Assembly: GCA_043742955.1 (NCBI GenBank)
Contig: JAYTXL010000027.1
Span: 2,745 to 66,744 of the forward strand
Direction: 5' to 3'
DNA: 64,000 nt
Origin: Verrucomicrobiota bacterium
Lineage (GTDB): Bacteria > Verrucomicrobiota > Verrucomicrobiia > Limisphaerales > JAYTXL01
Of the stretch, positions 2,104 through 42,272 are shown in pieces. Under the pieces are notes generated by a model. That model saw only the letters and a list, made by a program, of their open reading frames with translations, had not been told where the DNA came from and searched no databases. Made by a program: the position numbers and the translations under genes. Numbering within the stretch: the first letter of the stretch is position 1; the number at the start of each line of letters is the position of its first letter.

Positions 2104-3558
<1,455 letters not shown>

Positions 3559-3656
3559 GAGTCGATTAGGAGCTGGGCGGGACCGTGGATGGCCGGTGGG
3601 AGGAGCCTGGGAAAGACATGTTCGCGAATGGGGTAACTCGACAGTGACAAGGTGGA

Positions 3657-7040: not shown

Positions 7041-7053
7041 TACCGCAACGCTT

Positions 7054-8010
7054 ATGGCCAACGCTTCCGCCCCGCCCATTCCCGCCGTCCAGACCTACGG
7101 TTTGTCCCGCACTTACGGGGCAATGACGGCGCTCAGCGCGCTGGACCTCACGGTCAACCAGGGCGACCTCTTCGGCTTCATCGGCTCCAACGGCGCGGGC
7201 AAAACCACCACGCTGCGCATCCTAGCCACCTTCCTCGCCCCGTCCGCCGGCCGCGCGGAAGTCTTGGGCCATGATGTCGTGAGCGCCGCCGACGCCGTGC
7301 GCCACGTCATCGGTTACATGCCCGACTTCTTCGGTGTCTACAAGGACATGGAAGTGACCGAGTACCTGGATTTCTTTGGGGCGTGCTACAAAATTCCGAC
7401 CGCGCAGCGCGAGAAAACGGTGAGCGATGTTTTGGAGCTTGTTGGTCTGAGTGAAAAAAAAGGCGCGCTGATCGGGGCGTTGTCCCGCGGCATGCAGCAG
7501 CGGCTCGGTCTGGCCCGGGTGCTCATTCACGATCCCAAATTGCTCCTGCTCGACGAACCGGCCAGCGGTCTCGATCCGCGCGCGCGCATCGAAATGATGG
7601 CCATTTTGCAGGAGCTCCAGCGCCTCGGCAAAACCATCATCATCTCGTCGCACATTCTCAGCGAACTCCAGACGCTGTGCAACCGCGTCGCGATCATCGA
7701 AAAGGGCAAATTGATTTACAGCGGACCGGTGCAGGGCGTGCGCGATCAAATGTCGTCGGGCCGAATCTTTTGGGTCACGGTGGGGGCCGATCCCACCAAG
7801 GCCATCGAACTGCTGAAGGCGCGCGCGGAAGTGGCGGAGGTTGTCCCGGTGGATGGGAAGCTGAAGGTGCTGATGGCCAACCACGAGATCGACCCGAGTT
7901 TTATCCCCGACCTGCTCGTGCCCGCCGGCATCAAGCTCAATGGCCTGCGCGAGGACGAGCTTGGCCTGGAGGAAGTCTTTCTGCGAGTCACGCGGGGCGA
8001 GACGCAGTAA
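7054..8010 (+). CDS. ABC transporter ATP-binding protein
   Basis: Walker A GSNGAGKTT, ABC signature LSRGMQQRL, Walker B LLLLDEPASGLD and H-loop SSHIL. Confidence 0.95.
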   Translation: MANASAPPIPAVQTYGLSRTYGAMTALSALDLTVNQGDLFGFIGSNGAGKTTTLRILATFLAPSAGRAEVLGHDVVSAADAVRHVIGYMPDFFGVYKDMEVTEYLDFFGACYKIPTAQREKTVSDVLELVGLSEKKGALIGALSRGMQQRLGLARVLIHDPKLLLLDEPASGLDPRARIEMMAILQELQRLGKTIIISSHILSELQTLCNRVAIIEKGKLIYSGPVQGVRDQMSSGRIFWVTVGADPTKAIELLKARAEVAEVVPVDGKLKVLMANHEIDPSFIPDLLVPAGIKLNGLREDELGLEEVFLRVTRGETQ

Positions 8011-8096
8011 TCCGTTCAAGGTTCTCAATTTGATGCTCGAAGTTCGCCGTGGAGGTCCTCGACTTGGAACCTTGAACCCAGAACCCTGAACGGATT
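8009..8096 (+). promoter_or_regulatory. Long-range stem-loop spanning the whole ATPase-permease spacer
   Basis: aatccgttcaaggttc (8009-8024) pairs with gaaccctgaacggatt (8081-8096) at 15 of 16 positions, enclosing 56 nt. The left arm overlaps the TAA stop of the ATPase gene and the right arm ends 1 nt before the permease ATG. Confidence 0.4.
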
Positions 8097-8097
8097 C

Positions 8098-25898: not shown

Positions 25899-26008
25899 CG
25901 GCTTCATTTCTGAGCGTTGCTTATACTTGAGCGCGCATCTTGACGCCTCTGTGTTGCAACCGCTAGCGTCGCTTGTGGTTTTCTTAACAAAGAAAGATTT
26001 TGGCACCG

Positions 26009-26398
26009 ATGCCCGTTGATACGTCAGCCCAATCCAGCCCCTACTTCTTCCTGACCGTGTTCCTGGGAGTGGCGCTGCTCTTTCCGCTTGTGCCGCTGGG
26101 GCTGGCCCGGCTCTGGGCGCGGATTTATTCGCCGCAGAAAACCGGCGATCAAAAGAACGCCACGTACGAGTGCGGCTTGGAATCCAAAGGGGATGGCTCG
26201 GTTCAATTCCAGTCGCACTATTATCTCTACGCCATCATCTTTCTGATTTTCGACGTCGAGGTGATTTTTCTGCTGCCCTTTGCGGTCGCCTTCTCGGGTC
26301 TGCCGGTGGGAGCATTTCTAGCGATCCTGATATTTTTGTTCCTGCTGGTCGAAGGATTGGCCTGGGCCTGGCTGAAGGGAGTGCTCACATGGAAATGA
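26009..26398 (+). CDS. nuoA: NADH-quinone oxidoreductase subunit A
   Basis: Three-TM protein of ~130 aa carrying YECG (ATYECGLES), the NuoA/ND3 hallmark. The ATG is at 26009 (the track start at 26000 is TTG). Confidence 0.9.
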
Positions 26399-26432
26399 AG
26401 TACACCGGCCAGCCTGGCCCAACGCGCCGCCA

Positions 26433-27059
26433 ATGGACTGTGACATGGACGAGGGATTAAAAAACGAATTGAGCAAGCAAGGCGTGTTCACCACGACCTT
26501 GGAGGACTTGTACAACTGGGGGCGTAAGAATTCTGTCTGGCCGCTGTCATTCGGGTTGGCGTGCTGCGCGATTGAGATGATTGCCGCGAGCATGGCGCGC
26601 TTTGACCTCGCCCGCTTTGGCGCGGAAGTGTTCCGGCCGTCACCGCGCCAGGCGGACCTGATGATTGTGGCCGGCACGGTGACCAAGAAAATGGCGCCGC
26701 AAGTCGTGCGCCTCTACAATCAGATGCCCGAGCCAAAATATGTAATCGCGATGGGCGCGTGTGCGATTTCCGGCGGCCCGTTCAAGCAGGGTTACAACGT
26801 GCTCAAAGGGATCGACCGTTTTATTCCGGTGGATGTGCATATTCCGGGCTGCCCCCCCCGCCCGGAGGCGCTGATCCACGCGTTCATGACGCTACAAAAA
26901 AAAATCGATTCGCAAAAACTCACCGGCCCGAGCCGCCCGCGCCATCTGGACGCCGCGGCTCCGAGCGAATTTCCCGTGCCGGTTTTCGGGGAGCATGACT
27001 TGCTTCCGCCCAGCAATCCCAATCTATGGAGGCCGACCAATGTGGTGCGGAGCGCATGA
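26433..27059 (+). CDS. nuoB: NADH-quinone oxidoreductase subunit B
   Basis: [21 protein letters not shown] and GCPPRPE provide the N2 cluster ligands. There is a ~45-aa C-terminal extension. Confidence 0.95.
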
Positions 27060-27165
27060 AATGGCCCTGGCTGATAGCCGCCCGCCTTCAGGTTGTGAGG
27101 CTGGGCGCGGGAATCCTCCGCGACTGACGCAAGCTAAAGCAGGCGGCTACAGCTGACGCTGGCCA

Positions 27166-27813
27166 ATGAAAATTGCGATGGAATTGCTCGAACAAATCAA
27201 AGCCCGCCTTGAAGCCGCCGTTCCCGGTGCGGCTCTTGAGGTGGTTCCGAATGACAGCCCGTCCGCGCAGCGGTCCTTGCTCGTGGGCCCCGCACACGCC
27301 GTGGCGATCGCAAAATGCCTGCGCGATGATCCGCAGCTTCTTTTGGACTACTGTTCCAACGTGACGGGGGTCGATTGGCCTGAAATGGAACTCACTGAAA
27401 AGGTGAAGGTCAAGCAGGTAGTGGAGGGGGTGGAGAAGGAAGTTGAGGAAGTCAGGAAGAAGATTCGTCCCGGTGTTTTGGAAGTGGTTTATCACCTGTA
27501 TTCGATGACCTTGAAGCACGGTCCGGTCATCATCCGGATGCGGACGGTTAACCGGACCGACCAGGTTCAACTGCCCTCCCTCACCCCCGTCTGGCGCAGT
27601 TGCGATTTTCAGGAGCGCGAGATTTTTGACTTGTATGGAATTCATTTTGAGGGGCATCCGGATCTGCGCCGCATTCTCATGTGGGACGGGTTCCTAGACC
27701 ATCCCATGCGCAAGGATTATGTCGCGCCGGACGACTATGAATACGAACCGACCCCGCACGATGAAGTTCTGGAGCGTGTGAAAGCCCGGCCGGCGGCGGA
27801 GGCGAAGCGATGA
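27166..27813 (+). CDS. nuoC: NADH-quinone oxidoreductase subunit C
   Basis: The end of the protein, [14 protein letters not shown] ([26 protein letters not shown]), is typical of NuoC/30-kDa subunits. A charged insertion is present ([22 protein letters not shown]). Confidence 0.9.
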
Positions 27814-28988
27814 TCACTTCGGTTGAATCCCCCGCCCAATCCAATTACGAGATCGTGCCGAAGAGCGCGCCGGACGGGACAATCCTGGCCGGCGAGTTGC
27901 TCGAAGTCGCCATGGGACCACAGCACCCCTCCACCCACGGCGTGTTCCGCATGGATGTGGTGCTCGACGGAGAGACGGTCGTCAAGCTCAAGCCGGTTTT
28001 TGGCTACCTCCACCGCAACCACGAAAAGATTGCCGAGGGCACGAGCTATCTTGGCTCCATGCCCTATACCGACCGGCTCGACTATTTTTGCTCGATGTCC
28101 AACAACTGGGCCTATGCCCTCAGCGTGGAAAAGCTGGCGGGCCTGGCCGTGCCCGAGCGCGCGGAATACATCCGCGTGATCACGGCGGAACTGACGCGCC
28201 TGATGAACCACGCCTGTCTCATCGGCTTCCTGATGCAGGACATGGGGGCCTCGGGCACGCCCCTCATGTATGCCTTCCGCGAGCGCGAGAAGATTCTCGA
28301 CCTGTTCGAGTCGCTGAGCGGCTCGCGCATGATGTGTAATTATATGCGCTTCGGCGGTTGTCGTTGCGATTTGCCGGAAGGGTGGCTCACGCAGGCCCAT
28401 AAGGTCGTGGATGCCTTCCCGCGATTCAATGACGAGTTCGAGCGGTTGCTCGCGGACAACGAAATCCTGATGGCGCGGACGCAAGGCGTGGGCGGAGTAT
28501 CGCGTGAACTTGCCATCAGCGCCGGTCTCACCGGTCCGATGCTGCGGGCGGCGGGAGTGGATTACGACCTGCGCAAGGTGGACCAATACGGCATTTACGA
28601 CCGCTTCCAATTCCGGGTGCCCCTCGGGGATCATGGCGACACGTACGACCGGTATATGCTCCGCGTGCTCGAGATGCGCGAGAGCGTGGTAATTCTTCAG
28701 CAGGCGCTCAAGGGGATCCCCGCCGGGCCGGTCATCGACCCCAAGGCCAAGCTGCGCGGCTTTCGTCCGAAAGCGGGTGAAGCCTACGGCCGGATCGAAT
28801 CACCAAAGGGCGAGCTGGGGTTCTACCTCATTAGCGATGGTTCGCCGAACCCGTATCGTTATCGGGTGCGACCGCCCAGCTTGATTAATCTGACCGTGCT
28901 GGAGGACATGTGTCTTGGCCGCCCCATCGCGGACGTCGTCATCATTCTGGGCAGTGTGGACATTGTGCTGGGCGAGGTGGACCGATGA
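27810..28988 (+). CDS. nuoD: NADH-quinone oxidoreductase subunit D
   Basis: [13 protein letters not shown] and the C-terminal DIVLGEVDR. The gene has a 4-nt overlap with nuoC. Confidence 0.95.
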
Positions 28989-29064
28989 GCGACACGGATT
29001 CCACAGATTTGCACGAATTGAATTCCGAATTCGTGTCGCTTCGTGTAATTCGTGTCTGATTTTT

Positions 29065-29748
29065 ATGCTCGGCACTGGCATTCTCAAAGGCATGGCGGAA
29101 ACGGCGCGCAACTTCGTCGGCAGTTACACCGACGCGGAGCGGCTCACGACCGTCGAGTATCCCGAGGAGCGCCTCGCACCGAAGGAGGCCGCGCGCAATT
29201 TCCCCTTCCTCGTGTTTGACACCGAAGATCCGCAGGCCGGACTGCGGTGTGTTGCGTGTCAGATTTGCGAGAAGGAATGCCCGCCCAAATGCATTTATAT
29301 TGTCAAGAGCAAGGACAAGAAGGCTGATTTTGTAGGCAAACCGCAGTTCTATCCAGCGACGTTCGACATTGATGTCTCCGTCTGCATGAGCTGCCAGATC
29401 TGCGTGGAAGTCTGTCCGTTTGAGGCCATCAAGATGGACACCGAGTTTGAGCTGAGCAACTCCGACCGTTTTGACGCGTTGCTGTTGCGCAAGGAACACC
29501 TCGCGAAGCCCAACAGTTACTACCGGAAAATCCACCCCACGGAAGCCGCGGAAGTGGACGCGCGGCTGGCCGGTGACAAGGCGAAGGCCGAGGCGAAATC
29601 CCGGGCAGACGCGGACGCGAAAGCCAAGGCCGCGTTGGCCGCGAAGGCAGCCGTTTTGGCAACCCCCGCGCCTGCTCAAACTCCGGCCGCCCCCCCCCCT
29701 GACGCATGCAGTTCATCTGGGATTTCCTTAACGCATTGGTCGGCATGA
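29065..29748 (+). CDS. nuoI: NADH-quinone oxidoreductase subunit I (2x[4Fe-4S]) with Ala/Lys/Pro-rich C-terminal tail
   Basis: CVACQICEKECP and CMSCQICVEVCP. The ATG at 29065 (MLGTGILKGMAETARNF) is the plausible start. The gene directly follows nuoD, with no nuoEFG in between. Confidence 0.9.
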   Translation: MLGTGILKGMAETARNFVGSYTDAERLTTVEYPEERLAPKEAARNFPFLVFDTEDPQAGLRCVACQICEKECPPKCIYIVKSKDKKADFVGKPQFYPATFDIDVSVCMSCQICVEVCPFEAIKMDTEFELSNSDRFDALLLRKEHLAKPNSYYRKIHPTEAAEVDARLAGDKAKAEAKSRADADAKAKAALAAKAAVLATPAPAQTPAAPPPDACSSSGISLTHWSA

Positions 29749-30941
29749 TCGGGAAGGTGCTGGGCGAACAGCCTGACCCGAAAGCGCAGTTCCTGGTGTT
29801 CTTCCCTGAGGCCATTCAGCCCGTTGTTTCCGCGCTGCTCTCGATCGCGCCGATATTGGCGGTGTTCCCCCTGCTGTTTGCGCTTACCACCGTGGTGGAG
29901 CGCAAGGGGCTCGCCCGTATTCAAAATCGGCTGGGCCCGAACCGGGTTGGTCTGCCTTGGACGAAGCTGCGGTTGTTTGGCTTTGGTCAGTTCATCGCAG
30001 ACGGCATCAAGTCGATTATCAAGGAGGACGTGGTGCCGCGCGCGGCGGATAAGGTGGTGCACTTCCTGGCGCCCATCGCGTTGCTGGTGCCGGTGCTAAT
30101 CGCCTACTCGGTGTTGCCGGTGGGGCGGACCCTGGTGGCGATCGATCTCGATGGCGGTTTGCTCTTTTTCTTTGCCGTCGGCGCGGGCACGGAGCTGGCC
30201 GTGTTTATGGCGGGCTGGTCGAGCCATAATAAGTACTCGCTGCTCGGAGCCATGCGCGGCATTGCGCAAATGATCAGCTACGAAATGCCGCTCATCCTTT
30301 CAACCATCGGCGTGGTCATGGTGGTCGGCTCCCTGTCCCTGCCCAAAATCGTCGAGGCGCAGGGCTTTTTCGGGGGTTGGTTGCCGCATTGGCACGTCTT
30401 TACGCCCTGGGGTTTTGCGGGCTTTATTTTGTTTCTGATTGCCGCCACCGCGGAGTCAAACCGTTCGCCCTTTGATTTGCCGGAAGCGGAGTCGGAAATC
30501 ATTGCCGGTTATTTCGTGGAATATTCCGGTTTCAAGTTCGCCCTCTTTTTCCTGGGGGAATATCTGGGGCTTTTTGCCATCAGCGGCATCGCCATCACGC
30601 TGTTCCTGGGCGGCTGGCAGGCGCCGGTGTCGTTCCTGACGTGGGTGCCGGGCTACCTCTGGTTCTTCGCGAAGCTGGTCACGCTGATTGTGCTGTTCAT
30701 CTGGGTGCGCGGAACGGTGCCCCGATTGCGCATGGATCAACTCATGAACCTCGCCTGGAAATTCATGCTCCCATTGGCGCTCATTAACATTCTGGCGGTC
30801 GGAATTTGGCGCTTCATGGAGGCGGGCGTGGGCCGCTGGATGGTGTGTACGCTCCTGATCGGCGGCGCCTATGTGGTTCTCGGCAGGACGCTGAGCAGCG
30901 GTCCCGGCCTCGGGAAAAGAATCTATCGCTATGCGGACTGA
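29706..30941 (+). CDS. nuoH: NADH-quinone oxidoreductase subunit H
   Basis: ERKGLARIQNRLGPNRVG and a polytopic NuoH/ND1 pattern (YSLLGAMRGIAQMISYE, AESNRSPFDLPEAESE). An alternative start at 29745 forms an ATGA overlap with the nuoI stop. Confidence 0.9.
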   Translation: MQFIWDFLNALVGMIGKVLGEQPDPKAQFLVFFPEAIQPVVSALLSIAPILAVFPLLFALTTVVERKGLARIQNRLGPNRVGLPWTKLRLFGFGQFIADGIKSIIKEDVVPRAADKVVHFLAPIALLVPVLIAYSVLPVGRTLVAIDLDGGLLFFFAVGAGTELAVFMAGWSSHNKYSLLGAMRGIAQMISYEMPLILSTIGVVMVVGSLSLPKIVEAQGFFGGWLPHWHVFTPWGFAGFILFLIAATAESNRSPFDLPEAESEIIAGYFVEYSGFKFALFFLGEYLGLFAISGIAITLFLGGWQAPVSFLTWVPGYLWFFAKLVTLIVLFIWVRGTVPRLRMDQLMNLAWKFMLPLALINILAVGIWRFMEAGVGRWMVCTLLIGGAYVVLGRTLSSGPGLGKRIYRYAD

Positions 30942-31458
30942 AATCATGACGTTCCTGAGCCTGCCTTTCATCGTCCTCGCGCTGCTTACGCTCAGCAGCG
31001 GCTTCGCCGCGATGCGCCTTCGTAACCTGGTGCATTGCGCTCTCTGCCTGGTGCTGACCTTCGCGGGGTTGGCGGGGCTTTACCTGCTGCTCGACGCGGA
31101 GTTCGTCGGCCTGGCGCAAATTCTCGTCTATGTCGGCGCGGTGGCGATACTGATAGTCTTCGCCATTTTGCTCACCCGTAATACCGAGCCGGACGCCAGC
31201 TCGTCCACGGTTTCCTCCTCGTGGCTGGCTGGATTGGCCGTGACCGTGCTGACGGCAGGCAGCATCATCTTCGCCATCATGACCAGTGCGCGAGTCGGAC
31301 GCGCCCTGCCGCCGAAGCCCGATGCCAGCGTCAAGCACATCGGCGAACTATTAATGACGCAATACATCCTGCCGCTCGAAGTCATCGCCCTGCTCCTGAC
31401 CGTGGCGATGATTGGCGCGGTCATCATCGCGATGAAAGATAAGGAATCGAAGCAATGA
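30931..31458 (+). CDS. nuoJ: NADH-quinone oxidoreductase subunit J
   Basis: 175-aa five-TM protein with the NuoJ/ND6-like pattern (VHCALCLVLTFAGLAGLYLLLDAEFVGLAQILVYVGAVAIL). Confidence 0.85.
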   Translation: MRTEIMTFLSLPFIVLALLTLSSGFAAMRLRNLVHCALCLVLTFAGLAGLYLLLDAEFVGLAQILVYVGAVAILIVFAILLTRNTEPDASSSTVSSSWLAGLAVTVLTAGSIIFAIMTSARVGRALPPKPDASVKHIGELLMTQYILPLEVIALLLTVAMIGAVIIAMKDKESKQ

Positions 31459-31472
31459 CAATCCTTTTCAAC

Positions 31473-31530
31473 GCGGAGCCGCGGAGCCGCGGAGAAAAAA
31501 AGCATTCTCTCCGCGCCTCCGCGCCTCTGC
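31473..31530 (+). repeat. Long imperfect hairpin (REP-like) in the nuoJ-nuoK spacer
   Basis: The arms gcggagccgcggagccgcggaga and tctccgcgcctccgcgcctctgc form a 23-bp stem with two C-C mismatches and one G-U pair. The loop is aaaaaagcattc (12 nt). The left arm is a 3x tandem gcggagc heptamer. No T-run follows. Confidence 0.6.
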
Positions 31531-31540
31531 GGTTCAACTT

Positions 31541-31852
31541 ATGACGCCACTAACCGGATATCTAATTGTGTCCGCGTTGCTCTTCGCCATCGGCCTCGCG
31601 GGCGCGCTCACGCGGCGAAACGCCATCCTCGTGCTCATCGGCATCGAACTCATGCTCAACGCGGCGAACCTGAACTTCATCGCTTTCTGGCGTTACGGCC
31701 CGAACCCGGAAGCGCTGACCGGCGTGATGTTTGTGCTTTTTTCCATCGGGATCGCCGCCGCCGAAGCCGCCGTTGGCCTGGCGCTCATCATCGCGATTTA
31801 CCGGCACTACCGGACGACGAACCTTGACCAGATTGATTCGATGAAAGGCTAA
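31541..31852 (+). CDS. nuoK: NADH-quinone oxidoreductase subunit K
   Basis: 103-aa three-TM protein with LIGIELMLNAANLNF and the conserved Glu residues of NuoK/ND4L. Confidence 0.9.
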   Translation: MTPLTGYLIVSALLFAIGLAGALTRRNAILVLIGIELMLNAANLNFIAFWRYGPNPEALTGVMFVLFSIGIAAAEAAVGLALIIAIYRHYRTTNLDQIDSMKG

Positions 31853-31855
31853 GAC

Positions 31856-33205
31856 ATGGAAGAAACCACCAAGTCGAACAATGTCCTGGCCAGTGCCGTC
31901 GTGCGTCAGCACTTCAGCACCATTCTTTGCGAGAACCTCATCACGGCCATTCGGACTTTTCCAGAGCCATCGCGCGTGGATTTGCAGTTCGGTTTGGATT
32001 GGCTTTTCACCAAGCGATTCAAAGCGCGTCTGGTCGGCGTTCATGCACTGTACGCGCATGAAACACTTACCTTCGCGCACCTGATCAGCGAGGGGAGCTA
32101 TCCCGTGCAGATTGGGCCGCTGCAGCACGTCGAAATGGACGTCGGCGAAGCGTTGCCCGCACGTTGTTTGAAACAAGGTCTCTGGCTTTCTGAGGAGAAC
32201 GGGGTTCTGTTCGCCGTCCTGCTCACGCCTGCCGAGCGCTTCGGACATTCGGCGGGAGTCCATGTCGAAGTCGCCATTCCACCTGGTGAAGCCGGCCTGG
32301 AATTATCCCGGGCATTCTTCGACGAGGTGGAGAAGCTCATCAACCAGACAGGTTCTTACCGGGGGAAGGTTATTTCTCTGGAAAAGACGCAGGGATTTGC
32401 CGGGTTTGGCGCCGGCGGCGTCAAGGTTCACCGACTCCGTTCGGTGCAGCGGGAAGAAGTCATCCTCCCGGAGAAAACGCTGCGCTTGCTCGAACGCAAC
32501 GTAAGCGATTTCATCCAGCAGCGCGACCGGCTCAAAAACTTGGGCATGGCGATTAAGAAGGGCCTGCTCTTTTACGGCCCGCCGGGCACTGGCAAGACTC
32601 ATACCATTCATTACCTGGCCGGCCAACTGCCAAACCACACCACATTGCTCATCACTGCCGAACAAGTTGGATTGCTGGATGAATACTTCCAGCTCGCGCG
32701 TTTTCTCCAGCCAGTAATGGTGGTCATCGAGGACGTGGATCTCATCGCGCGTGCCCGCGAGCAAATGCGGGACGCGTGCGAGGAGAGCATCCTCAACAAA
32801 TTACTCAATGAGATGGACGGCTTGCGCGAGGACGCGGCGATTCTGTTCGTGCTCACTACGAACCGGCCCGAACAGCTCGAAGCCGCCTTGGCATCGCGTC
32901 CGGGGCGCATTGACCAGGCCATCGAGTTTCCGCTGCCCGACGAGGAAGGCCGGGCCAAGCTCGTCCGGCTTTACGCGCGAGGCCTCTCCGTGCCCATCGA
33001 GGTTGTGGAAACCATCGTTACCAAGACCAAGAAGGCGAGTGCAGCGTTCATCAAAGAACTGATGCGCCGCGCCGCCCAATATTATCTCCAAGGCCAGGGC
33101 GAAGGGGCATTAAGCGCGGCGCATGTCGAGGCCGCCTTGGACGAAATGCTGTTCAGCGGCGGCAGCCTGAACCTGAAGCTGTTGGGGGGAGCTGTGGAGG
33201 AATGA
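31856..33205 (+). CDS. Classic-clade AAA+ ATPase (single AAA module, ~220-aa unique N-domain) embedded in the nuo operon
   Basis: Walker A LLFYGPPGTGKTH, Walker B VMVVIEDVDLI and a second region of homology TTNRPEQLEAALASRPGRID. It starts 3 nt after the nuoK stop, and its stop overlaps the nuoL ATG (ATGA). Confidence 0.9.
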   Translation: MEETTKSNNVLASAVVRQHFSTILCENLITAIRTFPEPSRVDLQFGLDWLFTKRFKARLVGVHALYAHETLTFAHLISEGSYPVQIGPLQHVEMDVGEALPARCLKQGLWLSEENGVLFAVLLTPAERFGHSAGVHVEVAIPPGEAGLELSRAFFDEVEKLINQTGSYRGKVISLEKTQGFAGFGAGGVKVHRLRSVQREEVILPEKTLRLLERNVSDFIQQRDRLKNLGMAIKKGLLFYGPPGTGKTHTIHYLAGQLPNHTTLLITAEQVGLLDEYFQLARFLQPVMVVIEDVDLIARAREQMRDACEESILNKLLNEMDGLREDAAILFVLTTNRPEQLEAALASRPGRIDQAIEFPLPDEEGRAKLVRLYARGLSVPIEVVETIVTKTKKASAAFIKELMRRAAQYYLQGQGEGALSAAHVEAALDEMLFSGGSLNLKLLGGAVEE

Positions 33206-35635
33206 CCTGGACTGCCCAAAATCTCTGGTTGATTCCGGTGCTGCCGCTGGTGGCGGCGGGGGTGAGTGCGTTGCTCAAGCAGCGACAGCGTGCGCTCGCA
33301 GCGACGCTGGCGATTGGCTCGATGGCCGTGGCGTTCCTGCTCGCGTGCGGTGCTTTTGTGCAAACACTCGGCGGGCATGTGGAACGGCAGGTTCATAACT
33401 TTTCGTGGTTTCAGTTCGGCGAGACCACACTCCAGCTCGGCTGGGTGCTCGATCCGCTCACGGCGGCGATGCTGGTGATGGTCACGTTCGTCGGCGCGCT
33501 CATCTTCATCTACAGCGTCGGTTACATGGCACACGACGAAAACTTCACGCGGTTCTTCTGTTTCCTTTCACTGTTTGCGGCGGCGATGCTCGGCCTGGTC
33601 ATCGCGAACACCCTGCTGCTGCTCTTCATGTGCTGGGAGTTGGTCGGCCTGGCGTCCTACCTGCTCATCGGCTTCTGGTATCACAAACCCAGCGCGGCGG
33701 CGGCGGCGAAAAAGGCGTTCATCACCACGCGTATCGGCGATATCGGTTTTTTCATCGGCATCCTGTGGCTCTACCATGAAACCGGCACGCTGTTGTTCTA
33801 CGACGGCGGCAATGGATGCCTCGAACAATCTGCCATCGTAAAGCTGGTTGCCCAGACGACCTTGGGCGGCATGGCGGTGAGCACGGCGATTGCGCTGCTG
33901 ATTTTCTGCGGCGCCATCGGCAAATCCGGCCAGGTGCCGTTGCAAGTGTGGTTGCCCGATGCGATGGAAGGTCCGACGCCGGTGAGTGCGCTGATCCATG
34001 CCGCGACGATGGTGGCGGCGGGGGTGTTTCTGGTGGCGCGCGTGTATCCGCTAATGGAAGCGGTTCCTGCGAATTCGAGGTTGGCACTTCCAAGTTCTCA
34101 AACTGAAATGGTCCGCCCTCACTCCGGCCCGCTCCCCCAGGAGAGGGAGTTAGCGGCAACGACTCCTGATGGCTTCAAACCCATAAAGCCATCAGCAGCA
34201 CAACCCGGCAGAACCGAAAGCAGTACCGGAGCGGACGCTGAACGAATCACCAGAACACAGGCCAATGTTCCCCCTCTCCCCGGGGGAGAGGGCCGGGGTG
34301 AGGGTGAGCATTCAACCCCTTCCACAACCGTTTCCACCGCCCGCCAGATCGTTACTTGGATCGGCGCGATTACGGCGATTTTCGCTGCGCTTATTGCCGT
34401 CGCACAGACCGACATCAAACGCATCCTCGCTTACTCCACCGTGTCGCAACTCGGCTTCATGTTCATCGGGCTCGGCACCGGCGGGCCGGCGGTGGGCATG
34501 TTTCACTTGCTCACGCACGCGTTCTTCAAGGCCCTGCTGTTTCTGGGCGCCGGTTCGGTGATTCATGGTTGCCATGAGGAACAGGACATCAGGCACATGG
34601 GCGGCTTGCGTCGGCTGATGCCGGTGACTTTCGCGACCTACGCCATCGGCATGATGGCATTATCGGGCTTCCCGCTGGTGTTTTCCGGTTTCTGGAGCAA
34701 GGACGAAATTCTCCACAGCGCCTGGCTGTGGGAACCGAGCAAATGGCCCTTTGTCCTCGCCGCCCTCGGCGCCCTGCTCACGGCATTCTACATGACGCGG
34801 CAGATGTATTATGTATTTTTTGGAAGCTCCCGGAGCGCGGCGGTCCCCAGCCGCAGCGCGCACGACGCACACAGCGGCTCTGAATCACACGTGACGCAGG
34901 GAACGTCAGCCCCTCTCCCCGGGGGGGAGGGAGAAATATTCGCTGCCCTCCGCGCATTCGGAAGCGTACTTGACCTCGCCCGGCGCTGCGGCTGGGGACA
35001 GCCGTGTTCCACACGAATCCCCGGCGGTGATGACCCTTCCGCTCGCCCTGCTGGCGGCTTGCGCCATTCTCATGAGTCTCTTCGGCACGCCGATCTGGCC
35101 ATGGTTTCACGATTACCTTTCCGGACATGAATCCCATTTCCGCCCGGCCATCGATCTGGGGGTGGCCCTGACGATGCTCTTTTCGGTCGCCCTGGTGGGC
35201 ACTGGGGTCGGACTGGGCTGGCGGCTGTATGGTCGTAAACCCCTCACGGATGCGGCGGCGCCGGATGCGCTCGAGCAACTGCAGCCTGCCGCTTTTGGGG
35301 TGCTGCGCGGAAAATTCTACATCGACGAGTTGTACGAAATATCGGTTATCCGTTTTCACGCCTGGTGTGCCCGTGGCTCGCGCTGGCTGGATGATACGAT
35401 TTGGAATGGGGTGGTGAACGCGCTTTCTGGGTGCGTCCTCGCGTTGTCATGGTTGAGCCGGTTCATCGATGAGTTGGTGGTCAACTTCGGCTTTGATGAA
35501 GCCTGCCGCCGGGTGCGTGACGGAGCGAGGCTCACCGCGCGATTGCAGGATGGCAAAGTGCAAAACTACCTGCGCGTGATCGGCCTGTCCCTGGCGATTC
35601 TGTTGCTGTTCCTGATCTGGGGGCGCGGCCAATAA
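33202..35635 (+). CDS. nuoL: NADH-quinone oxidoreductase subunit L, enlarged; reading frame broken once (+1) inside a repeat element
   Basis: ORF 33202..35130 carries the NuoL motifs WELVGLASYLLIGFWY and AGSVIHG. ORF 34970..35635 (frame +1) carries the remaining NuoL part, HESPAVMTLPLALLA...FYIDELY...QNYL. The total span of 2434 nt equals 3n+1. Deleting one G of the G7 run at 34921-34927 gives a continuous ~811-aa protein. Confidence 0.8.
34116..34308 (+). repeat. Inverted-repeat-flanked structured element (MITE/REP-like) inserted in frame in nuoL
   Basis: The left arm ccctcactccggcccgctcccccaggagaggga (34116-34148) is approximately the reverse complement of the right arm ccctctccccgggggagagggccggggtgaggg (about 34272-34304). 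The right arm contains the perfect palindrome ccctctcccc-g-ggggagaggg. An internal 10-bp hairpin is ctgatggctt-N10-aagccatcag. The element translates as ...PHSGPLPQERE...PPLPGGEGRGEGE... Confidence 0.6.
34843..34999 (+). repeat. Second inverted-repeat-flanked element in nuoL, coincident with the frame break
   Basis: gtccccagccgcagcgc (34843-34859) is the exact reverse complement of gcgctgcggctggggac (34983-34999), a 17-bp perfect inverted repeat 123 nt apart. The interior contains cccctctccccgggggggaggga, related to the palindrome of the first element. Confidence 0.6.
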
Positions 35636-35646
35636 TTTACCAGCTG

Positions 35647-37200
35647 ATGCATTCATTTCCCCTCCTCACCGCGCTGACGTTCACCCCGTTCTTGGGGGCG
35701 GCGTTGTTGATCGGCTTGGAGTCGCGACACAAGGCCCTGGCGCGCCGGCTGGCGTTGGGCTTTAGCTTGATTGCACTGCTGCTGGCGGGCCGGCTCTGGT
35801 TTGATTTCAATCCCGCCACCCAGGAGCTGCAATTTCTGGAGCGCCACGCCTGGATACCCACGCTCAACGTGGAGTATTTTGTCGCGCTCGACGGTTTGGG
35901 CCTGTTGATGGTTCTGCTGACGGCCGTGGTCGTGCCGATGGCCATGCTGGCGTCGTGGCGGATGGAGGAGAAGGTTCCCCTCTATTTTGCGCTCGTGCTC
36001 CTGCTGCAGGGCGGCCTGTTTGGCGCGTTCACGGCCCTGAACTTTTTCCATTGGTTCATCTATTGGGAGTTGAGTCTCGTGCCCGCGTTTTTCCTGATCA
36101 AGCTCTGGGGTGGTGGGCGGCGCAGTGCGGCGGCATTTCAGTTCTTTGTATATACCATGGTTGGCAGCGTCACGATGCTGCTCTCCTTCGTGGCGATCTA
36201 TCTGGCGACCGGGACGTTTGATTTCATCGAGCTGGCCGACCTGGGCCGCAGCGGCGGTCTGGCTTCGGCGCTGAACGTTAAGCTCTGGTTTGCCCTCACG
36301 CCGAACCAGCTCACCATGCTCATCTTTGGCGGGGTCTTCCTTGGTTTCGCCGTGAAGGTTCCGCTGTGGCCCTTTCACACTTGGCTGCCGGCGACTTACT
36401 CCGAGGCACCCACCGGCACGACCATGCTGCTGACGGGGCTCATGTCCAAGCTGGGAGTCTATGGCTTCCTGCGCATTCTCCTGCCGCTCTTTCCGGAACA
36501 GATGAGGCAGGTGCTCACGCCACTACTTTGGCTCGCCGTGGCCACCATCGTGTTTTCCGCATTTGCCGCCGTCGCCCAAACGGATCTGAAACGAACCCTC
36601 GCCTACTCGTCCATCAACCACCTCGGCTACTGTCTGCTCGGACTTTTCGCCGCCCTGCAAGTCACCCCGAACGAGCCGCGGTGGGCATTGGAGAAAGCGG
36701 CCGCCCTCAACGGAGTCCTGCTCCAAATGTTCAACCACGGTCTGACGGCCTCGGCGCTGTTTTGCTTCGTCGGCTTTCTGGAGCAGCGCGGCGGCGGGTT
36801 ACGCGGGTTGAATGATTTTGGTGGGCTCCGCAAAGTGGCCCCGGTGTTTTGCGGTTTGATGGGGATCGCGCTCTTCGCGTCCCTCGGCCTGCCCGGATTG
36901 AATGGTTTCATCGGCGAGTTCCTCATTTTTAAAGGAGCTTTCCCCCTCGCGCCGTGGGCGACGGCCGGGTCCGCCATCGGGCTGCTGGTGACGGCGATTT
37001 TCATCCTGACAATTTTGCAACGGGTATTTAACGGGCCGCTGAATGAAAAGTGGTCGCGTCTGCCGGACCTTACCGTGGCTGAGCGGCTGATCGTGGTGCC
37101 GGCGGTCGCCTTGATGCTGCTGCTCGGTATTTGTCCTCAGATGGTGATCGGGCTGGCCAATGCAACCGTGCTGCAGTGGGTGGAGCACTTGAAGTTTTAG
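35647..37200 (+). CDS. nuoM: NADH-quinone oxidoreductase subunit M (copy 1)
   Basis: 517 aa with the ND4-type pattern FIYWELSLVPAFFLIKLWGGGRRSAAAFQFFVYTMVGSVTMLL, plus HTWLPATYSEAPTGTTMLL. Confidence 0.9.
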   Translation: MHSFPLLTALTFTPFLGAALLIGLESRHKALARRLALGFSLIALLLAGRLWFDFNPATQELQFLERHAWIPTLNVEYFVALDGLGLLMVLLTAVVVPMAMLASWRMEEKVPLYFALVLLLQGGLFGAFTALNFFHWFIYWELSLVPAFFLIKLWGGGRRSAAAFQFFVYTMVGSVTMLLSFVAIYLATGTFDFIELADLGRSGGLASALNVKLWFALTPNQLTMLIFGGVFLGFAVKVPLWPFHTWLPATYSEAPTGTTMLLTGLMSKLGVYGFLRILLPLFPEQMRQVLTPLLWLAVATIVFSAFAAVAQTDLKRTLAYSSINHLGYCLLGLFAALQVTPNEPRWALEKAAALNGVLLQMFNHGLTASALFCFVGFLEQRGGGLRGLNDFGGLRKVAPVFCGLMGIALFASLGLPGLNGFIGEFLIFKGAFPLAPWATAGSAIGLLVTAIFILTILQRVFNGPLNEKWSRLPDLTVAERLIVVPAVALMLLLGICPQMVIGLANATVLQWVEHLKF

Positions 37201-37295
37201 CACTGAATGGACACGATTAAAGACGCAGTTAAATTGGCCCGCCGCGATGAATTTGTCAGAGTGACTGAAAATTATCGAACTCCCGCGTTCTGACC

Positions 37296-38822
37296 ATGCT
37301 TGCCTGGACCATATATCTCTCGTTTCTGGGTGTGTTCGCGCTGCTGCTGCTGCCCAGGGAAGAGGCGCGCATGGCGCGCGTGACGGCGCTGCTCAGCGCG
37401 TTGGCGGGCTTGGGCGTTTCCCTCGCCGCGATTCTGCAATACCAGCCTGGGTCGGGGATTGTCACGGTCGCCAAGGCTTCCTGGGTGGCGTCGCTCGGGA
37501 TCGAATATCACCTTGCCGCCGATGGCATCAGCCTCACGCTGGTGTTGCTCACGGGGATCGCTTCGGTGGTGGGAATTTTATTTTCGTGGAATGTCGAGCA
37601 TCGCGCCCGGGAGTTCTTTGCATTTTACCTCGCTCTCATCGGCGGTGTGTATGGGGTGTTCCTAAGTTTTGACCTGTTCCTGTTGTTCGTCTTCTACGAG
37701 CTGGCGATTATCCCGAAATATTTCCTCATCGCCATCTGGGGTTCGACAAACAAGGAATATGGAGCGATGAAGCTGGCACTCTATTCCTTTGTCGGGAGCG
37801 CCCTGGTGCTCATCGGTCTGGTGGCCGCGTACGTCGTCTCTGGAGCGCACACGTTCGATTTGCTTGAGCTGGCAAAATTTCCGTTTCCGGAGGGCTTTCA
37901 ATACTGGGCATTCCCGCTGGTGTTCATCGGATTCGCCATTCTCGCGGGCTTGTGGCCCTTTCACACCTGGGCACCCACGGGCCACGTGGCCGCGCCGACG
38001 GCCGCCTCGATGCTGCTGGCCGGCGTCGTGATGAAACTCGGCGCGTATGGCTGTCTGCGCGTGGCCATGACTCTGTTCCCACTGGGGTTGGCGGCCTGGC
38101 GCCAGGAGATCGCCATCCTGGCCGTCATTGGGATCGTGTATGGCGCGATGGTGGCGCTGGTGCAGAAGGATTTCAAATTTGTGATCGGCTATTCCAGTGT
38201 GAGTCACATGGGTTTTGTGCTGCTCGGTTTGATGACGATTAATGAAATCGGCCTAAGCGGTGCGGTGTTGCAGATGTTTTCCCATGGCATCATTGCCGGT
38301 TTGCTATTCGCCGTGGTGGGCCGGATGGTTTATGAGCGCACGCACACCCGCGATTTAAATGCACTGTCAGCCATGGACCTGGGCCACGCGCTGCCCTTTG
38401 CCGCCGGCACGTTCGTGCTCGCCAGTCTGGCGTCCATGGGGCTGCCCGGCTTCAGCGGCTTTGTGGCCGAATTGTCGATCCTCTACGGAGCCTGGCAGCT
38501 CTATCCCCAGCTCGCCTTGCTGGCTGGTGGGGGGATTGTCATCGGGGTTGCCTTCATGATGCGGACGATGGTGCGCGCCTTTTTCTCGGATGAAGGCCGG
38601 GCGGGGACCTCACCGGAACTACATTTGGCGCCGGCGCAAAATGAGCCCGCCGGCGGTGCGTCACCATTTGAAACGATTTCCGTTCCCGAGCGGATTGGTG
38701 CCGCGATCCTGCTGGGCACCACGCTGGTGATCGGGTTGCAGCCGCATTTGTTGCTGGATTTGATAATGCCCAGCTTTCAATCGCCACTGATGCAGGTGCT
38801 GGTGAAGGGAGGGAGGCCGTGA
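37296..38822 (+). CDS. Second NuoM/ND4-type antiporter-like subunit (copy 2)
   Basis: 508 aa. FVFYELAIIPKYFLIAIWGSTNKEYGAMKLALYSFVGSALVLI and HTWAPTGHVAAPTAASMLLAGVVMKLG fit NuoM better than NuoN. Confidence 0.85.
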   Translation: MLAWTIYLSFLGVFALLLLPREEARMARVTALLSALAGLGVSLAAILQYQPGSGIVTVAKASWVASLGIEYHLAADGISLTLVLLTGIASVVGILFSWNVEHRAREFFAFYLALIGGVYGVFLSFDLFLLFVFYELAIIPKYFLIAIWGSTNKEYGAMKLALYSFVGSALVLIGLVAAYVVSGAHTFDLLELAKFPFPEGFQYWAFPLVFIGFAILAGLWPFHTWAPTGHVAAPTAASMLLAGVVMKLGAYGCLRVAMTLFPLGLAAWRQEIAILAVIGIVYGAMVALVQKDFKFVIGYSSVSHMGFVLLGLMTINEIGLSGAVLQMFSHGIIAGLLFAVVGRMVYERTHTRDLNALSAMDLGHALPFAAGTFVLASLASMGLPGFSGFVAELSILYGAWQLYPQLALLAGGGIVIGVAFMMRTMVRAFFSDEGRAGTSPELHLAPAQNEPAGGASPFETISVPERIGAAILLGTTLVIGLQPHLLLDLIMPSFQSPLMQVLVKGGRP

Positions 38823-40306
38823 ACTACGGAGAAATTCTCAGACTCGCCGCGCCTGAAACGATCTTGGTTTTGACCGCTTTGATCGTGTTGGGGGTGGATT
38901 TGTGGCGGGCGCACTCGCAGCCGGTGCGCCTGCGGATGCATCTGGCCGTGGCCTTGGGGGTGCTCGGGTGTGTGGCCTCCTTCCTGTGGATGTTCTATGT
39001 TCCCGCGCACGAAAATATTCTCCACGGCATGCTGGTAGTTGACCCGTTGACGCTGCTGCTCAAGCAGGCCTTGCTCGTGTTGTCGGTGTTCACCCTGATT
39101 ATTTCCTTCGAGGCGGATTTCACCGAGCACGTGGGGGAGTATGTGGGGGTGTTGCTCCTGGCGACGGTGGGCATGATGTTTCTGGTCAGTGCGGAGGATA
39201 TCCTGATGATTTTTGTCGCACTCGAACTGACCAGCCTTTCCCTCTATATTCTGACGGCCTTCAACAAACGAAACATTCACTCCGCCGAAGCGGCATTGAA
39301 GTATTTTTTGATCGGGAGCATGTCGGCGGCGTTCACCCTCTACGGTCTGAGCCTGATATATGGCCTGTCCGGTTCGACCAATCTGGTTCAGATTGCCAGC
39401 CACTTGACCGGCCAGCGGACCGATCCATTGTGGTACGCAGCCATCGTGATGACGGTGATGGGCTTCGGCTTCAAGGTCGCCGCCGTGCCGTTTCATTTGT
39501 GGGCGCCGGACGCCTATCAGGGAGCCCCGACCCCCAGTGCCGCCTTCATCGCCTCCGGCTCGAAGGTTGCCAGCTTCTTTGTCTTTGCCAAAGTCATGAG
39601 CATCGGCTTCGCCGGAGCGGAAGGCAGTGGCGCGTGGCACGCCTATGTTGCCGGTTGGATGCCGGTGATCGCCGTCCTCGCGCTGCTCTCAATGGTGCTG
39701 GGCAATCTGGCGGCCATCATGCAGACCAGCGTGAAAAGGTTGCTTGCGTATTCTGCCATCGCCCACGCCGGCTATGCCTTGCTCGGCTTGCTCGCGAACA
39801 GCCGCGCCGGCCTGGCCGCCCTGATTTATTACATCATCACATACGCGCTGACGACCGTGGGTGCGTTCGGCGTCGTGGCGCTCGTGGAGGGAAGGGGAGG
39901 GGATGATCGATTGGCGGTGTTTGCCGGCCTTGGTCGCCGGTCGCCCGGACTCGCCTTCTGCTTCATGATATTTATTTTGTCGCTGGCGGGTATTCCACCG
40001 CTGGCGGGTTTTTTCGGAAAGTTTTATGTATTTGTCGCCGTGCTTAAGGGTGATGCGCCGCACCTCGGCCTTCTCTGGCTGGTGATCCTGGCCATCGCGA
40101 TGAGCGCGGTGTCGCTCTATTATTATCTGCAACTGCTCAAGCAGGTTTATGTCCATGAGGCCCCGGCCTCGGCGGCCCCGCTGCTCACTCCGTGGCTCGC
40201 CCGCCTGGCGATTGCCCTGTTGGCACTGGCCGTGCTCGTGCTGGGCTGCGCCCCGGATCTGCTTTTGCAAACGGTGATCTCCGCGGTCCATGCCGCAAGT
40301 TGGTAG
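38819..40306 (+). CDS. nuoN: NADH-quinone oxidoreductase subunit N
   Basis: 495 aa with the ND2-type pattern FVALELTSLSLYILTAFNKRNIHSAEAALKYFLIGSMSAAFTLYG. The gene has a 4-nt overlap with the preceding gene. Confidence 0.9.
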   Translation: MNYGEILRLAAPETILVLTALIVLGVDLWRAHSQPVRLRMHLAVALGVLGCVASFLWMFYVPAHENILHGMLVVDPLTLLLKQALLVLSVFTLIISFEADFTEHVGEYVGVLLLATVGMMFLVSAEDILMIFVALELTSLSLYILTAFNKRNIHSAEAALKYFLIGSMSAAFTLYGLSLIYGLSGSTNLVQIASHLTGQRTDPLWYAAIVMTVMGFGFKVAAVPFHLWAPDAYQGAPTPSAAFIASGSKVASFFVFAKVMSIGFAGAEGSGAWHAYVAGWMPVIAVLALLSMVLGNLAAIMQTSVKRLLAYSAIAHAGYALLGLLANSRAGLAALIYYIITYALTTVGAFGVVALVEGRGGDDRLAVFAGLGRRSPGLAFCFMIFILSLAGIPPLAGFFGKFYVFVAVLKGDAPHLGLLWLVILAIAMSAVSLYYYLQLLKQVYVHEAPASAAPLLTPWLARLAIALLALAVLVLGCAPDLLLQTVISAVHAASW

Positions 40307-40364: not shown

Positions 40365-42272
40365 TTGCGCGTGAAAAACCGAATGAACCTGAACCGCACC
40401 CGCTCATTTCTGGCGGCCACGTCCGTCATCCTCGCCCTCGCTGGCACGCCTGCCCCCGCCGCTTCGCCGACTCTGCCGGAGGGGGTGGTCAGCACTCAGG
40501 ATCCCAAGGATCAGCCGCCGTCGCCGTTGGACTCGTTGAAAAAGATCACGGTGCCGGAAGGTTTCAAGGTCACGCTCTTCGCGGGCGAACCGGACCTCAT
40601 GCAGCCGATCTCGTTTGACTTGGATGACCGCGGCCGCCTCTGGGTCGTGGAAAACTTTTCTTATCCGGATTTCAAAACCGAGAACAAGGACCGCATCATC
40701 ATTCTGACCGACCAGGATGGCGACGGACGGTTTGATGAGCGGAAAGTATTTTTGGAGAATGGCCGCCGGCTGACCAGCATTGTCAACGGCTTTGGTGGTG
40801 TCTGGGTGCTTTCTCCGCCGGAGCTGCTTTTCATTCCCGACGCGAATGGCGACGGCGTGCCCGACGGTCCGCCGGTGGTGCATCTGGATGGCTGGACGAC
40901 GAAAGCGTCGCACAACATGGTGAACGGGTTGATCTGGGGGCCGGACGGCTGGCTGTACGGGCGGCAGGGGATTCTCGTGCCCTCCCTGGTGGGCCAGCCA
41001 GGCACGCCCGAGCCGCAGCGAACCAGGGTGGGTTGCGGGGTCTGGCGTTATCATCCCACCCGCAAGATTTTTGAGATGGTGGCGGACGGCACGACGAACC
41101 CGTGGGGGATGGATTTTGACGAGCATGGCCAGGCGTTTATTTCCAACTGCGTCATCGCCCACCTGTGGCACGTGGTGCCGGGCGCCCATTGGCAGCGCAT
41201 GTTTGGTGAGGACTCAAATCCATTTTCCTACGGCTTGATGCCGGCGACGTCCGATCATTTTCACTGGGATACCCGGGAAAAGTGGAGTGATGTCCGCAAG
41301 CTGGGAGTCACGGACACCTCCAATCAGGCCGGCGGAGGTCATGCCCATGAGGGTGCGATGGTTTATTTAGGCGACAACTGGCCGGACCAATATCGCGGCA
41401 CGCTCATGATGGGCAACATCCATGGCAACCGCCTGCTCTACGACGTGCTGGAGCGAAAGGGTTCCGGTTACACGGCCCGTCACGGGAAACCGTTTTTGAT
41501 GGCCAACGATCCGTGGTTTCGCCCGATCACCATGGATTATGGCCCGGATGGCGGCGTGTTTGTCAGCGACTGGAGCGATCTCGGCGAGTGTCACGACAAC
41601 GACGGCGTGCATCGGACGAGCGGGCGGATTTATAAAATCACCTATGGCCAGCCCAAAGCGCTGGGTGATCTGAATCTGGCCCGGCTCAGCGATGCCGAGC
41701 TCGTCAAGTTGCAGCTGCACAAGAACGACTGGTATGTGCGGCATGCGCGCCGATTGCTCCAGGAACGTGCGGCGGCTGGAAAAATCAGCCCGGGAACAGC
41801 GGCGGCGTTGTTAAAAATCTTAAAGGACAATCCCGACGAGACGCGCAAGCTGCGCGCGCTATGGGCGCTGCACTCCGTGGGGCAGGCCGACGAGGGGCTG
41901 CTGTTGAAGCAACTCGACCAGAGGAGTGAACATGTCCGTTGGTGGGCGGTGCAGTTTCTGATGGAAGATAAGAAAGCATCACCCAAGGTGCTGGCCAAAT
42001 TTACGGAGCTGGCCCGCAACGATGCGTCGGCGCTCGTTCGGCTCGCTTTGTGTTCCGCGCTGCAGCGACTCCCGCTGACGGACCGCTGGGGGGTTGCGGA
42101 AGCCCTGGCCGCGCATGAAGAGGACGGCGCCGATGCGAACGTGCCGCTGATGCTGTGGTATGGCATTGAGCCGTTGGTGCCGGCTGATCGCACGCGAGCG
42201 ATTCAGTTCATGGCCAAGTGCAAGCTTCAAACCGTCCGCCAGTTCATCACTCGCCGATTGGCGGCGAATTGA
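40365..42272 (+). CDS. PVC-type 'membrane-bound dehydrogenase domain' protein with C-terminal HEAT-like repeats
   Basis: A signal peptide, then ITVPEGFKVTLFAGEPDLMQPISFDLDDRGRLWVVE (the beta-propeller glucose/sorbosone-dehydrogenase-like domain common in Planctomycetes and Verrucomicrobia). The C-terminus has HEAT-like helices (VRWWAVQFL..., ALVRLALCSALQRL). No CxxCH haem motif was seen. Confidence 0.7.
   Translation: MRVKNRMNLNRTRSFLAATSVILALAGTPAPAASPTLPEGVVSTQDPKDQPPSPLDSLKKITVPEGFKVTLFAGEPDLMQPISFDLDDRGRLWVVENFSYPDFKTENKDRIIILTDQDGDGRFDERKVFLENGRRLTSIVNGFGGVWVLSPPELLFIPDANGDGVPDGPPVVHLDGWTTKASHNMVNGLIWGPDGWLYGRQGILVPSLVGQPGTPEPQRTRVGCGVWRYHPTRKIFEMVADGTTNPWGMDFDEHGQAFISNCVIAHLWHVVPGAHWQRMFGEDSNPFSYGLMPATSDHFHWDTREKWSDVRKLGVTDTSNQAGGGHAHEGAMVYLGDNWPDQYRGTLMMGNIHGNRLLYDVLERKGSGYTARHGKPFLMANDPWFRPITMDYGPDGGVFVSDWSDLGECHDNDGVHRTSGRIYKITYGQPKALGDLNLARLSDAELVKLQLHKNDWYVRHARRLLQERAAAGKISPGTAAALLKILKDNPDETRKLRALWALHSVGQADEGLLLKQLDQRSEHVRWWAVQFLMEDKKASPKVLAKFTELARNDASALVRLALCSALQRLPLTDRWGVAEALAAHEEDGADANVPLMLWYGIEPLVPADRTRAIQFMAKCKLQTVRQFITRRLAAN

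Follow-up and report, generated by a model that had tools for sequence, protein, structure and literature searches.

Translated palindromic repeats in a loop of the complex I subunit NuoL, and a nested out-of-frame segment where the nuoL reading frame of a Verrucomicrobiota bacterium breaks

How does the reading frame of a single gene come to be broken in an otherwise intact operon for respiratory complex I, and does the break belong to the organism, to its assembly or to the way in which the gene is decoded? The question is raised by nuoL in a stretch of 64,000 nt from a Verrucomicrobiota bacterium (GenBank assembly GCA_043742955.1, contig JAYTXL010000027.1, positions 2,745 to 66,744 of the forward strand). 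This whole stretch is referred to here as the window; positions are counted from its first letter, and the features of the operon described below lie on its plus strand. A preliminary description, made from the letters of the window, had placed the break inside a 157-nt element bounded by a perfect 17-bp inverted repeat, and had listed a pseudogene, a split subunit, a slippage site and an assembly error as possible explanations. Comparison with related loci suggests a different view of the element, in which hairpin-forming repeats enter a loop of NuoL and are translated there, and in which the damage lies in a segment nested within one of them.

The gene is assigned to nuoL by matches to PF00662 and PF00361 and by its scores against NF005141 (578.9 bits, cutoff 556) and TIGR01974 (550, cutoff 407.5). 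Its motifs are split over two frames, as had been noted before. Frame 1 carries the 5′ part (33202-34927), with the Pfam domains Proton_antipo_N and Proton_antipo_M and the NCBIfam match to NF005141, inside an open reading frame (ORF) of 642 aa at 33202-35130 (P0001; P-numbers denote proteins and L-numbers related loci, as labelled in this analysis). The NuoL part of this ORF ends with ...YMTRQMYYVFFGSS and is followed by repeat-derived sequence, a nonsense tail of ~65 aa (EGEIFAALRAFGSV... / EGEIFAALRAFGSVLDLARR...) that is closed by the read-through stop at 35128-35130. Frame 2 is open from 34895 to 35635 and encodes PHESPAVMTLPLALLA... plus the remaining C-terminus of NuoL. The 3′ part of the gene (34928-35635, with the stop at 35633-35635) contains PHESPAVMT... 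and the last C-terminal helices; these C-terminal 236 codons sit in the +1 frame relative to the antiporter core, and the frame-2 piece aligns to positions 440-576 of the 615 positions of the NuoL profile. The switch between the frames could take place anywhere from 34895, just after a frame-2 TGA (34892-34894) that forms the upstream limit, to ~34975, and the G7 run discussed below is one candidate site among others; the upstream limit is the one proposed earlier, while the downstream one had been set at ~35010.

Deletion of one G yields a continuous NuoL of 810 aa (~811 aa in the preliminary description) that can be aligned over its full length with orthologs encoded by a single ORF (690-830 aa). 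The insertion in the broken loop amounts to ~54 residues beyond a basal loop of 8-10 residues, close to the ~55 residues estimated before. No decay is seen in the 3′ part, whose identity to the closest ortholog (P0002) is 82%, equal to the value for the whole protein. For this part the gene caller retained only a fragment of 187 aa (P0125) that starts with ATG 35072. An in-frame ATG at 35030, previously pointed out as a possible start of a separate C-terminal piece, is indeed present, but it corresponds in the ortholog alignment to the invariant Met of the HESPxVMT motif and thus loses its value as evidence for a start.

The perfect 17-bp inverted repeat (34843-34859 / 34983-34999) and the G7 run (34921-34927) were both found where they had been reported. 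The repeat is the top-ranking GC-rich inverted repeat of the window, and it widens to arms of 28 nt with 89% complementarity (34832-34859 / 34983-35010), which enclose an outer hairpin (34832-35010) inserted in the loop between transmembrane helices (TM) 14 and 15. In folding, 34826-35016 forms a single long hairpin with -106 kcal/mol and z = -5.4, a stability that was not reached by any of 200 shuffled sequences. A second copy of the outer-arm family was not found in the window, the frame-broken element had no match in Rfam, and a scan of 34600-35300 for promoters and terminators revealed no site resembling either. The same hairpin family, recognizable by the pattern CGGAG(C/T)GCGG...CCGC(A/G)CTCC, also occupies this codon position in L081, L083, L084 and L097, where it is translated in frame (RSAGVPARS...SAGGDARTPHESP in these relatives vs RSAAVPSRS...AAAGDSRVPHESP in the window). 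Differences in the arms between genomes are paired changes that preserve complementarity, e.g., AGCC/GGCT vs GCCC/GGGC, and in L097 each arm holds a matched extra stretch of 7 nt. The proposal that the 157-nt inverted-repeat element is itself the disruptive unit therefore has to be revised, since its family is read in frame in four relatives.

The window differs from L081, L083 and L084 by a net gain of 70 nt at the apex of the hairpin (loops of 223 vs 153 nt). This lineage-specific segment, a quasi-palindrome at ~34893-34962, appears as a 70-nt alignment gap with boundaries that are not exactly definable, and it pairs with itself in the minimum-energy fold. As 70 equals 3x23+1, the net length of the nested segment is 3n+1, and the deposited gene is consequently frame-broken. 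Apart from a 22-nt core, no further copies of the segment were detected in 1.3 Mb of collected sequence, and the nested core was not found in a metagenome scan in which any length of the G run was allowed. On the evidence of the alignments, the defect is the additional ~70-nt (3n+1) apex segment and not the outer hairpin.

The behaviour of this loop in other bacteria was followed in 166 related loci, in which the spacing between the YMTRQ... and HESPxVMT motifs was scored in all three frames. A species-genome scan based on LPDAMEGP and ALIHAATM added few useful loci, as these motifs are too universal and mostly returned distant phyla; the closest relatives are uncultured Verrucomicrobia with 60-82% identity. 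Both flanking motifs were present in 78 loci, and the window was the sole shifted locus among them. All 77 scorable relatives read through the loop in one frame, which is the outcome of the ortholog comparison that had been proposed earlier, and which weakens the programmed and split readings of the gene. The basal spacing between the motifs is 60-66 nt, equivalent to the loop of 8-10 residues mentioned above, while ~28 loci have an expanded spacing of 96-186 nt, and the window is the longest with 223 nt. Nine expanded loops are far more stable than their shuffled versions (z from -4.3 to -10.8), eight of these being from outside the window, each with z < -4.

Hairpins in this loop belong to at least five unrelated sequence families, yet all start right after a conserved Arg and end right before PHESP. 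According to a tree of conserved columns, close sisters carry different families (P0008 vs P0010, P0005 vs P0012, and the window vs P0002), which speaks for a rapid turnover of the cassette at this codon position. With hairpin families exchanged so rapidly between sister lineages, recent insertion events are to be expected, and a new one that falls out of frame is plausible. The families are not restricted to nuoL: the family in the nuoL loop of L099 recurs in frame in a loop of its nuoM, and nuoM of L084 contains another family, likewise in frame. The two nuoM hairpins (L084 5560-5680 and L099 1480-1600) occupy the loop after ...LLAS(W/G)R, belong to families seen in the nuoL loops, encode the peptides SRREEAQTS...SLLTSAPTE and VGTSSTS...GDAVERLPT, and reach folding energies of -66 and -52 kcal/mol. 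Target-site duplications could not be defined from the alignments. The elements are probably mobile, as suggested by dispersed copies of the same families, both intergenic and in nuoM, and the TM14-TM15 loop can be regarded as a landing site for dispersed palindromic repeats that become translated. In a poor AlphaFold model of the repaired NuoL (mean predicted local distance difference test score, pLDDT, of 48.6) both insertions of the protein are non-helical and of low confidence.

The second and larger of these insertions, absent from the preliminary description, lies upstream of the break. This first intragenic palindromic insertion of nuoL (~34066-34335, arms 34116-34141 / 34279-34304) adds ~90 aa in frame, translates as ...HSGPLPQERE...PLPGGEGRGEGE..., and folds with -107.8 kcal/mol (z = -6.85). 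Many members of the clade have it in frame as well, recognizable by HPGPLPQERE and PLPGGEGRGEGE in the peptide. The right arm hardly varies as DNA in four orthologs in which the flanking codons differ at most third positions. L084 has the same inverted pair between nuoH and nuoJ, L081 has it upstream of nuoJ, and BoxC-like pairs are intergenic in L081, L084 and L088. Furthermore, unannotated intergenic sequences of Escherichia coli match the arm (CCCTCTCCCC..GGGGAGAGGGCCGGGGTGAGGG) with 88-91% identity across 43 nt. The median is 7 such places per genome, and an inverted pair between flgH and flgG is an example. These E. coli copies probably belong to the BoxC family. In Rfam the arms gave only sub-threshold matches, to Whalefall-1 and to miRNA families.

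The two insertions are connected by the 22-nt palindromic core CCCCTCTCCCCGGGGGGGAGGG at 34910-34931, which includes the G7 run and belongs to the motif of the first insertion. It is 95% identical to 34271-34292 within that insertion, from which it differs by one A-to-G change that turns GGGGGAGAGGG into GGGGGGGAGGG, i.e., G5-A-G into G7, with the length unchanged. In the other copies of this core the run is no longer than G5. The preliminary description had considered G7 to hold one G too many; the run itself is there, but the surplus is less secure, because the difference from the canonical GGGGGAGAGGG is a substitution and not a change in length. With the core at its canonical length, no miscounted base is needed at the run. 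The surplus nucleotide may instead lie anywhere between 34895 and ~34975; alternatively, the nested segment may have been out of frame all along.

A possible course of events can be outlined from these observations. A hairpin-forming palindromic repeat has colonised the TM14-TM15 loop of NuoL, and in this genome the apex of the hairpin carries a further quasi-palindromic segment of ~70 nt around the 22-nt core that it has in common with the first insertion. This nested expansion would have been out of frame from the outset, or else one base would have been gained within it. The outcome would be a truncated NuoL that lacks the frame-2 C-terminal segment, within an otherwise intact complex I operon of the type with two NuoM subunits (2M type). 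Our tentative reading is that the break is real and arose very recently, so that nuoL would be on its way to becoming a pseudogene and would not contain a decoding device; we give this reading just short of an even chance. We also infer that the extra base is present in the organism and not merely in the assembly. Two contigs of the Logan collection, from the separate sequencing runs SRR22198267 and SRR23617268, match the window without a single difference (100% identity over 2.8 kb and 1.8 kb), and this points to accurate reads from a clonal population. In addition, other long homopolymers stand in intact ORFs of the window: nuoB has C8 and A9, and G7 occurs twice more and A8 once.

Several observations weigh against a lesion. 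The junction was found in no independent assembly: exact look-ups of the 642-aa, 187-aa and neighbouring proteins led to a single NCBI contig of 89,913 bp, the Logan contigs end before the junction, and a search with the C-terminal protein with repaired loop returned no other assembly of this strain. The 3′ part is as conserved as the rest of the gene and the other nuo genes are intact, which an assembly error predicts equally. The break zone contains a homopolymer where a hairpin of 190 nt has its tip, an error-prone context, and a C10 run at 29690-29699 hints at problems with homopolymer lengths, even if the correction needed there is of the opposite direction. Finally, with one shifted locus among 78, out-of-frame states are rare whatever their cause.

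The explanation that survives best beside the lesion is an indel in the assembly or consensus, a real possibility that we place only a little below the lesion, at somewhat less than an even chance. The organism would then have an in-frame nested segment of 69 nt and an intact NuoL of 810 aa, and the extra base would exist only in the contig. Such an error would account well for a fully conserved 3′ part in an intact operon and for the 77 relatives that are all in frame. The break zone also includes the G7 run, at the apex of a very stable hairpin, and the C10 run at the nuoI stop is a second frame anomaly of the same contig. Frame-damaged public NuoL entries on long contigs, P0143 for example, show that metagenome-assembly errors of this kind occur. 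On the other hand, G7 has the canonical length of the core and owes its form to a substitution rather than to an indel, the window has at least six more homopolymers of 7-9 nt without a reading error, the perfect Logan matches from two runs suggest accurate short reads for which G7 is no hard case, and the sign of the correction would have to be opposite at C10 and at G7.

As observed separately in the protein collection, the NuoL entries P0143, P0165, P0191 and P0240, on long contigs of related bacteria, have internal starts or short out-of-frame stretches. Damage to the frame of nuoL is thus no rarity among metagenome assemblies. NuoL fragments on long contigs elsewhere have scattered start and break points, and none of these recurs at the TM14-TM15 loop.

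The remaining explanations assume that the gene works as it stands, by recoding, by phase variation or as two separate pieces. Even taken jointly we regard them as unlikely, and the present analysis gave no positive evidence for a decoding mechanism. Programmed recoding, in which a +1 shift on CCC-GGG-GGG-G or a ribosome hop over part of the palindrome would restore a full-length NuoL, is in our judgment very improbable in spite of some suggestive features. The sequence CCC GGG GGG G permits re-pairing of tRNA-Pro or tRNA-Gly in the +1 frame, a Shine-Dalgarno-like GGGAGGGAG follows the run, and the run is part of a strong hairpin. With one CCC codon at 34918-34920 (frame 1) and another at 34979-34981 (frame 2), a hop of 61 nt is formally possible; the undecayed 3′ part would be compatible with continued expression. 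The shifted state, however, is not conserved: the 77 relatives are in frame, four of them with the same hairpin family, and the inserts are translated there. No hungry or stop codon follows the candidate site, at which the next zero-frame codon is GAG, and since the nested segment is unique to this genome a recoding signal would have had no time to arise. Under recoding, the predicted peptides across the junction of the frames would be ...APLPGGREKYSLPSAH... or ...APLPGAAAGDSR....

A related thought is that the frame-broken palindrome is decoded by slippage or hopping and would be the equivalent, on a bacterial chromosome, of the 'byp' elements of mitochondria. Programmed translational bypassing is known from gene 60 of phage T4 and from the 'byp' elements in mitochondrial genes of Magnusiomyces. 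The nuoL case resembles these systems in that a short GC-rich hairpin insert breaks the frame of a respiratory-chain gene of which the downstream part is intact, and it departs from them in that the interrupted state is unconserved, there is no stop after the take-off codon and relatives translate their inserts. We consider such a counterpart highly doubtful. If it were true, decoding would let out-of-frame palindromic insertions persist in loops of essential membrane proteins.

Phase variation, with G7 as a slipped-strand on/off switch of this accessory complex I within the population, appears hardly probable. It would fit the presence of a G tract in the break zone and an alternative operon with two NuoM and without nuoEFG, which may be dispensable under some conditions. 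However, G7 is shorter than typical contingency tracts and was born of a single substitution in a repeat core of which the other copies have G5 or fewer, and a comparable tract is absent from this loop in the relatives. Respiratory complexes are not known to be targets of phase variation.

Least credible of all is a naturally split NuoL with a C-terminal piece (~34970-35635) started at TTG 34970, ATG 35030 or ATG 35072, for although these start codons are in frame, and most genes of the window lack a Shine-Dalgarno sequence so that a missing one here is no argument against a start, ATG 35030 is the invariant Met of HESPxVMT, ATG 35072 lies 44 nt downstream of that motif and would give a product without it, the frame-1 product would carry its nonsense tail of ~65 aa overlapping the second ORF, and none of the relatives is split at this loop.

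The genomic context of the gene can be summarised as follows. According to Pfam and NCBIfam scans, nuoL belongs to a nuo operon at 25988-40306 with the order nuoA-B-C-D-I-H-J-K, an AAA ATPase, and nuoL-M-M-N. Genes nuoE, nuoF and nuoG are absent, with none of them between nuoD and nuoI or nuoH. Two proteins match the NuoM family TIGR01972 (468.7 and 443.8 bits, cutoff 263.8), and one passes TIGR01770 for NuoN. Loss of other nuo genes, which the preliminary description had named as the sign of plain decay, was not seen: apart from nuoL every nuo gene is intact (12 others counted). Tiling of the whole window by codon bias gave no other obviously broken gene either. The overlapping ORFs 2104-4023 and 3657-4655 were considered as a further frameshift and rejected, as they are two genes, for a sulfatase and a TIM-barrel protein.

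In the nuoL slot of the operon, nuoK is followed by the inserted AAA ATPase, then by nuoL and nuoM. The AAA+ ATPase (31856-33205, 449 aa) has an FtsH/PAN-like AAA domain, is joined to nuoL by an ATGA overlap and shows weak similarity to the anti-phage ATPase IteA. In the orthologs the slot between nuoK and nuoL holds a BrnT toxin and an Mrr-type nuclease (L083) or a gene for 180 aa without known function (L084), or is empty (L081, L082). In L084, moreover, the first nuoM is immediately followed by inserted genes for an EcoRV-type endonuclease and a D12-class methyltransferase (6944-8277), another sign of the build-up of foreign cargo in the nuo operon. Upstream, the C10 run at 29690-29699 falls at the end of nuoI and throws the gene out of register with the stop at the nuoI/nuoH junction, conserved as TGACGCATG and seen in L082. 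The effect is an extension of 16 aa and an overlap of 43 nt with nuoH, and +1 C or -2 C would restore the conserved stop. Downstream of the operon, a DUF7133/HEAT protein (40365-42272) is conserved in L082. Elsewhere in the window, the short gap between two genes of the plus strand (7054-8010 and 8098-9771) holds an AT-richer imperfect inverted repeat of 35 nt (8009-8096), perhaps a terminator or one more repeat. A very strong coding signal marks 53737-62196, a single ORF of 2,819 aa.

Complex I with two NuoM subunits is an alternative form attributed to Chadwick et al. 2018 (as cited in PMC10579370). The operon shares with it two NuoM-type genes together with NuoN and NuoL and without nuoEFG, and L082 has the same layout. 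In a 2M-type complex I an extended lateral helix of NuoL is expected. This match provides context only and does not explain the break of the frame.

With respect to the element, the closest known counterparts are the Rickettsia palindromic elements (RPEs), which are described as selfish palindromic repeats inserted in frame in protein-coding genes (Ogata et al. 2000, as summarised in PMC10969869). As in RPEs, hairpin elements of ~100-200 nt are located inside unrelated essential genes and translated with the host protein, several sequence families exist, of which related ones recur between or within genes of single loci, and the insertions are in loop segments between helices, as judged from the alignment and, weakly, from the AlphaFold model. 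The differences concern the phylum (Verrucomicrobia) and the unrelated, GC-rich sequences, the repeated use of one NuoL loop, where at least five families occur and replace one another between sister lineages, and the out-of-frame state (3n+1) of the frame-broken nuoL copy.

REP/BIME, BoxC and ERIC are intergenic stem-loop repeats of enterobacteria, treated together with elements that resemble miniature inverted-repeat transposable elements (PMC2267715, PMC10969869), and BoxC is listed among these enterobacterial repeats with its size and copy number (PMC2267715). The arm of the first insertion and the G7-bearing core are similar to them through their match to the E. coli intergenic motif. Unlike the E. 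coli copies, those in nuoL are translated, and the outer hairpin of the frame-broken element derives from another family. The element is of a known type, an RPE-like intragenic palindrome with a one-base length defect, and the break of the frame is in itself ordinary.

For annotation, this means that nuoL of the window is to be flagged as frameshifted and not called as two genes. In a wider sense, one clade of Verrucomicrobia repeatedly takes up translated hairpin repeats in two NuoL loops and one NuoM loop, and one of the nuoL repeats is almost identical in nucleotides to an intergenic repeat of E. coli; both the cross-phylum repeat and the loop hot spots are worth following. The picture of selfish DNA inside genes, known from Rickettsia, is extended in this way to free-living bacteria and to complex I, and the loops of this clade form a natural series in which the choice of sites by such elements, and the reasons why membrane-protein loops tolerate them, can be studied.

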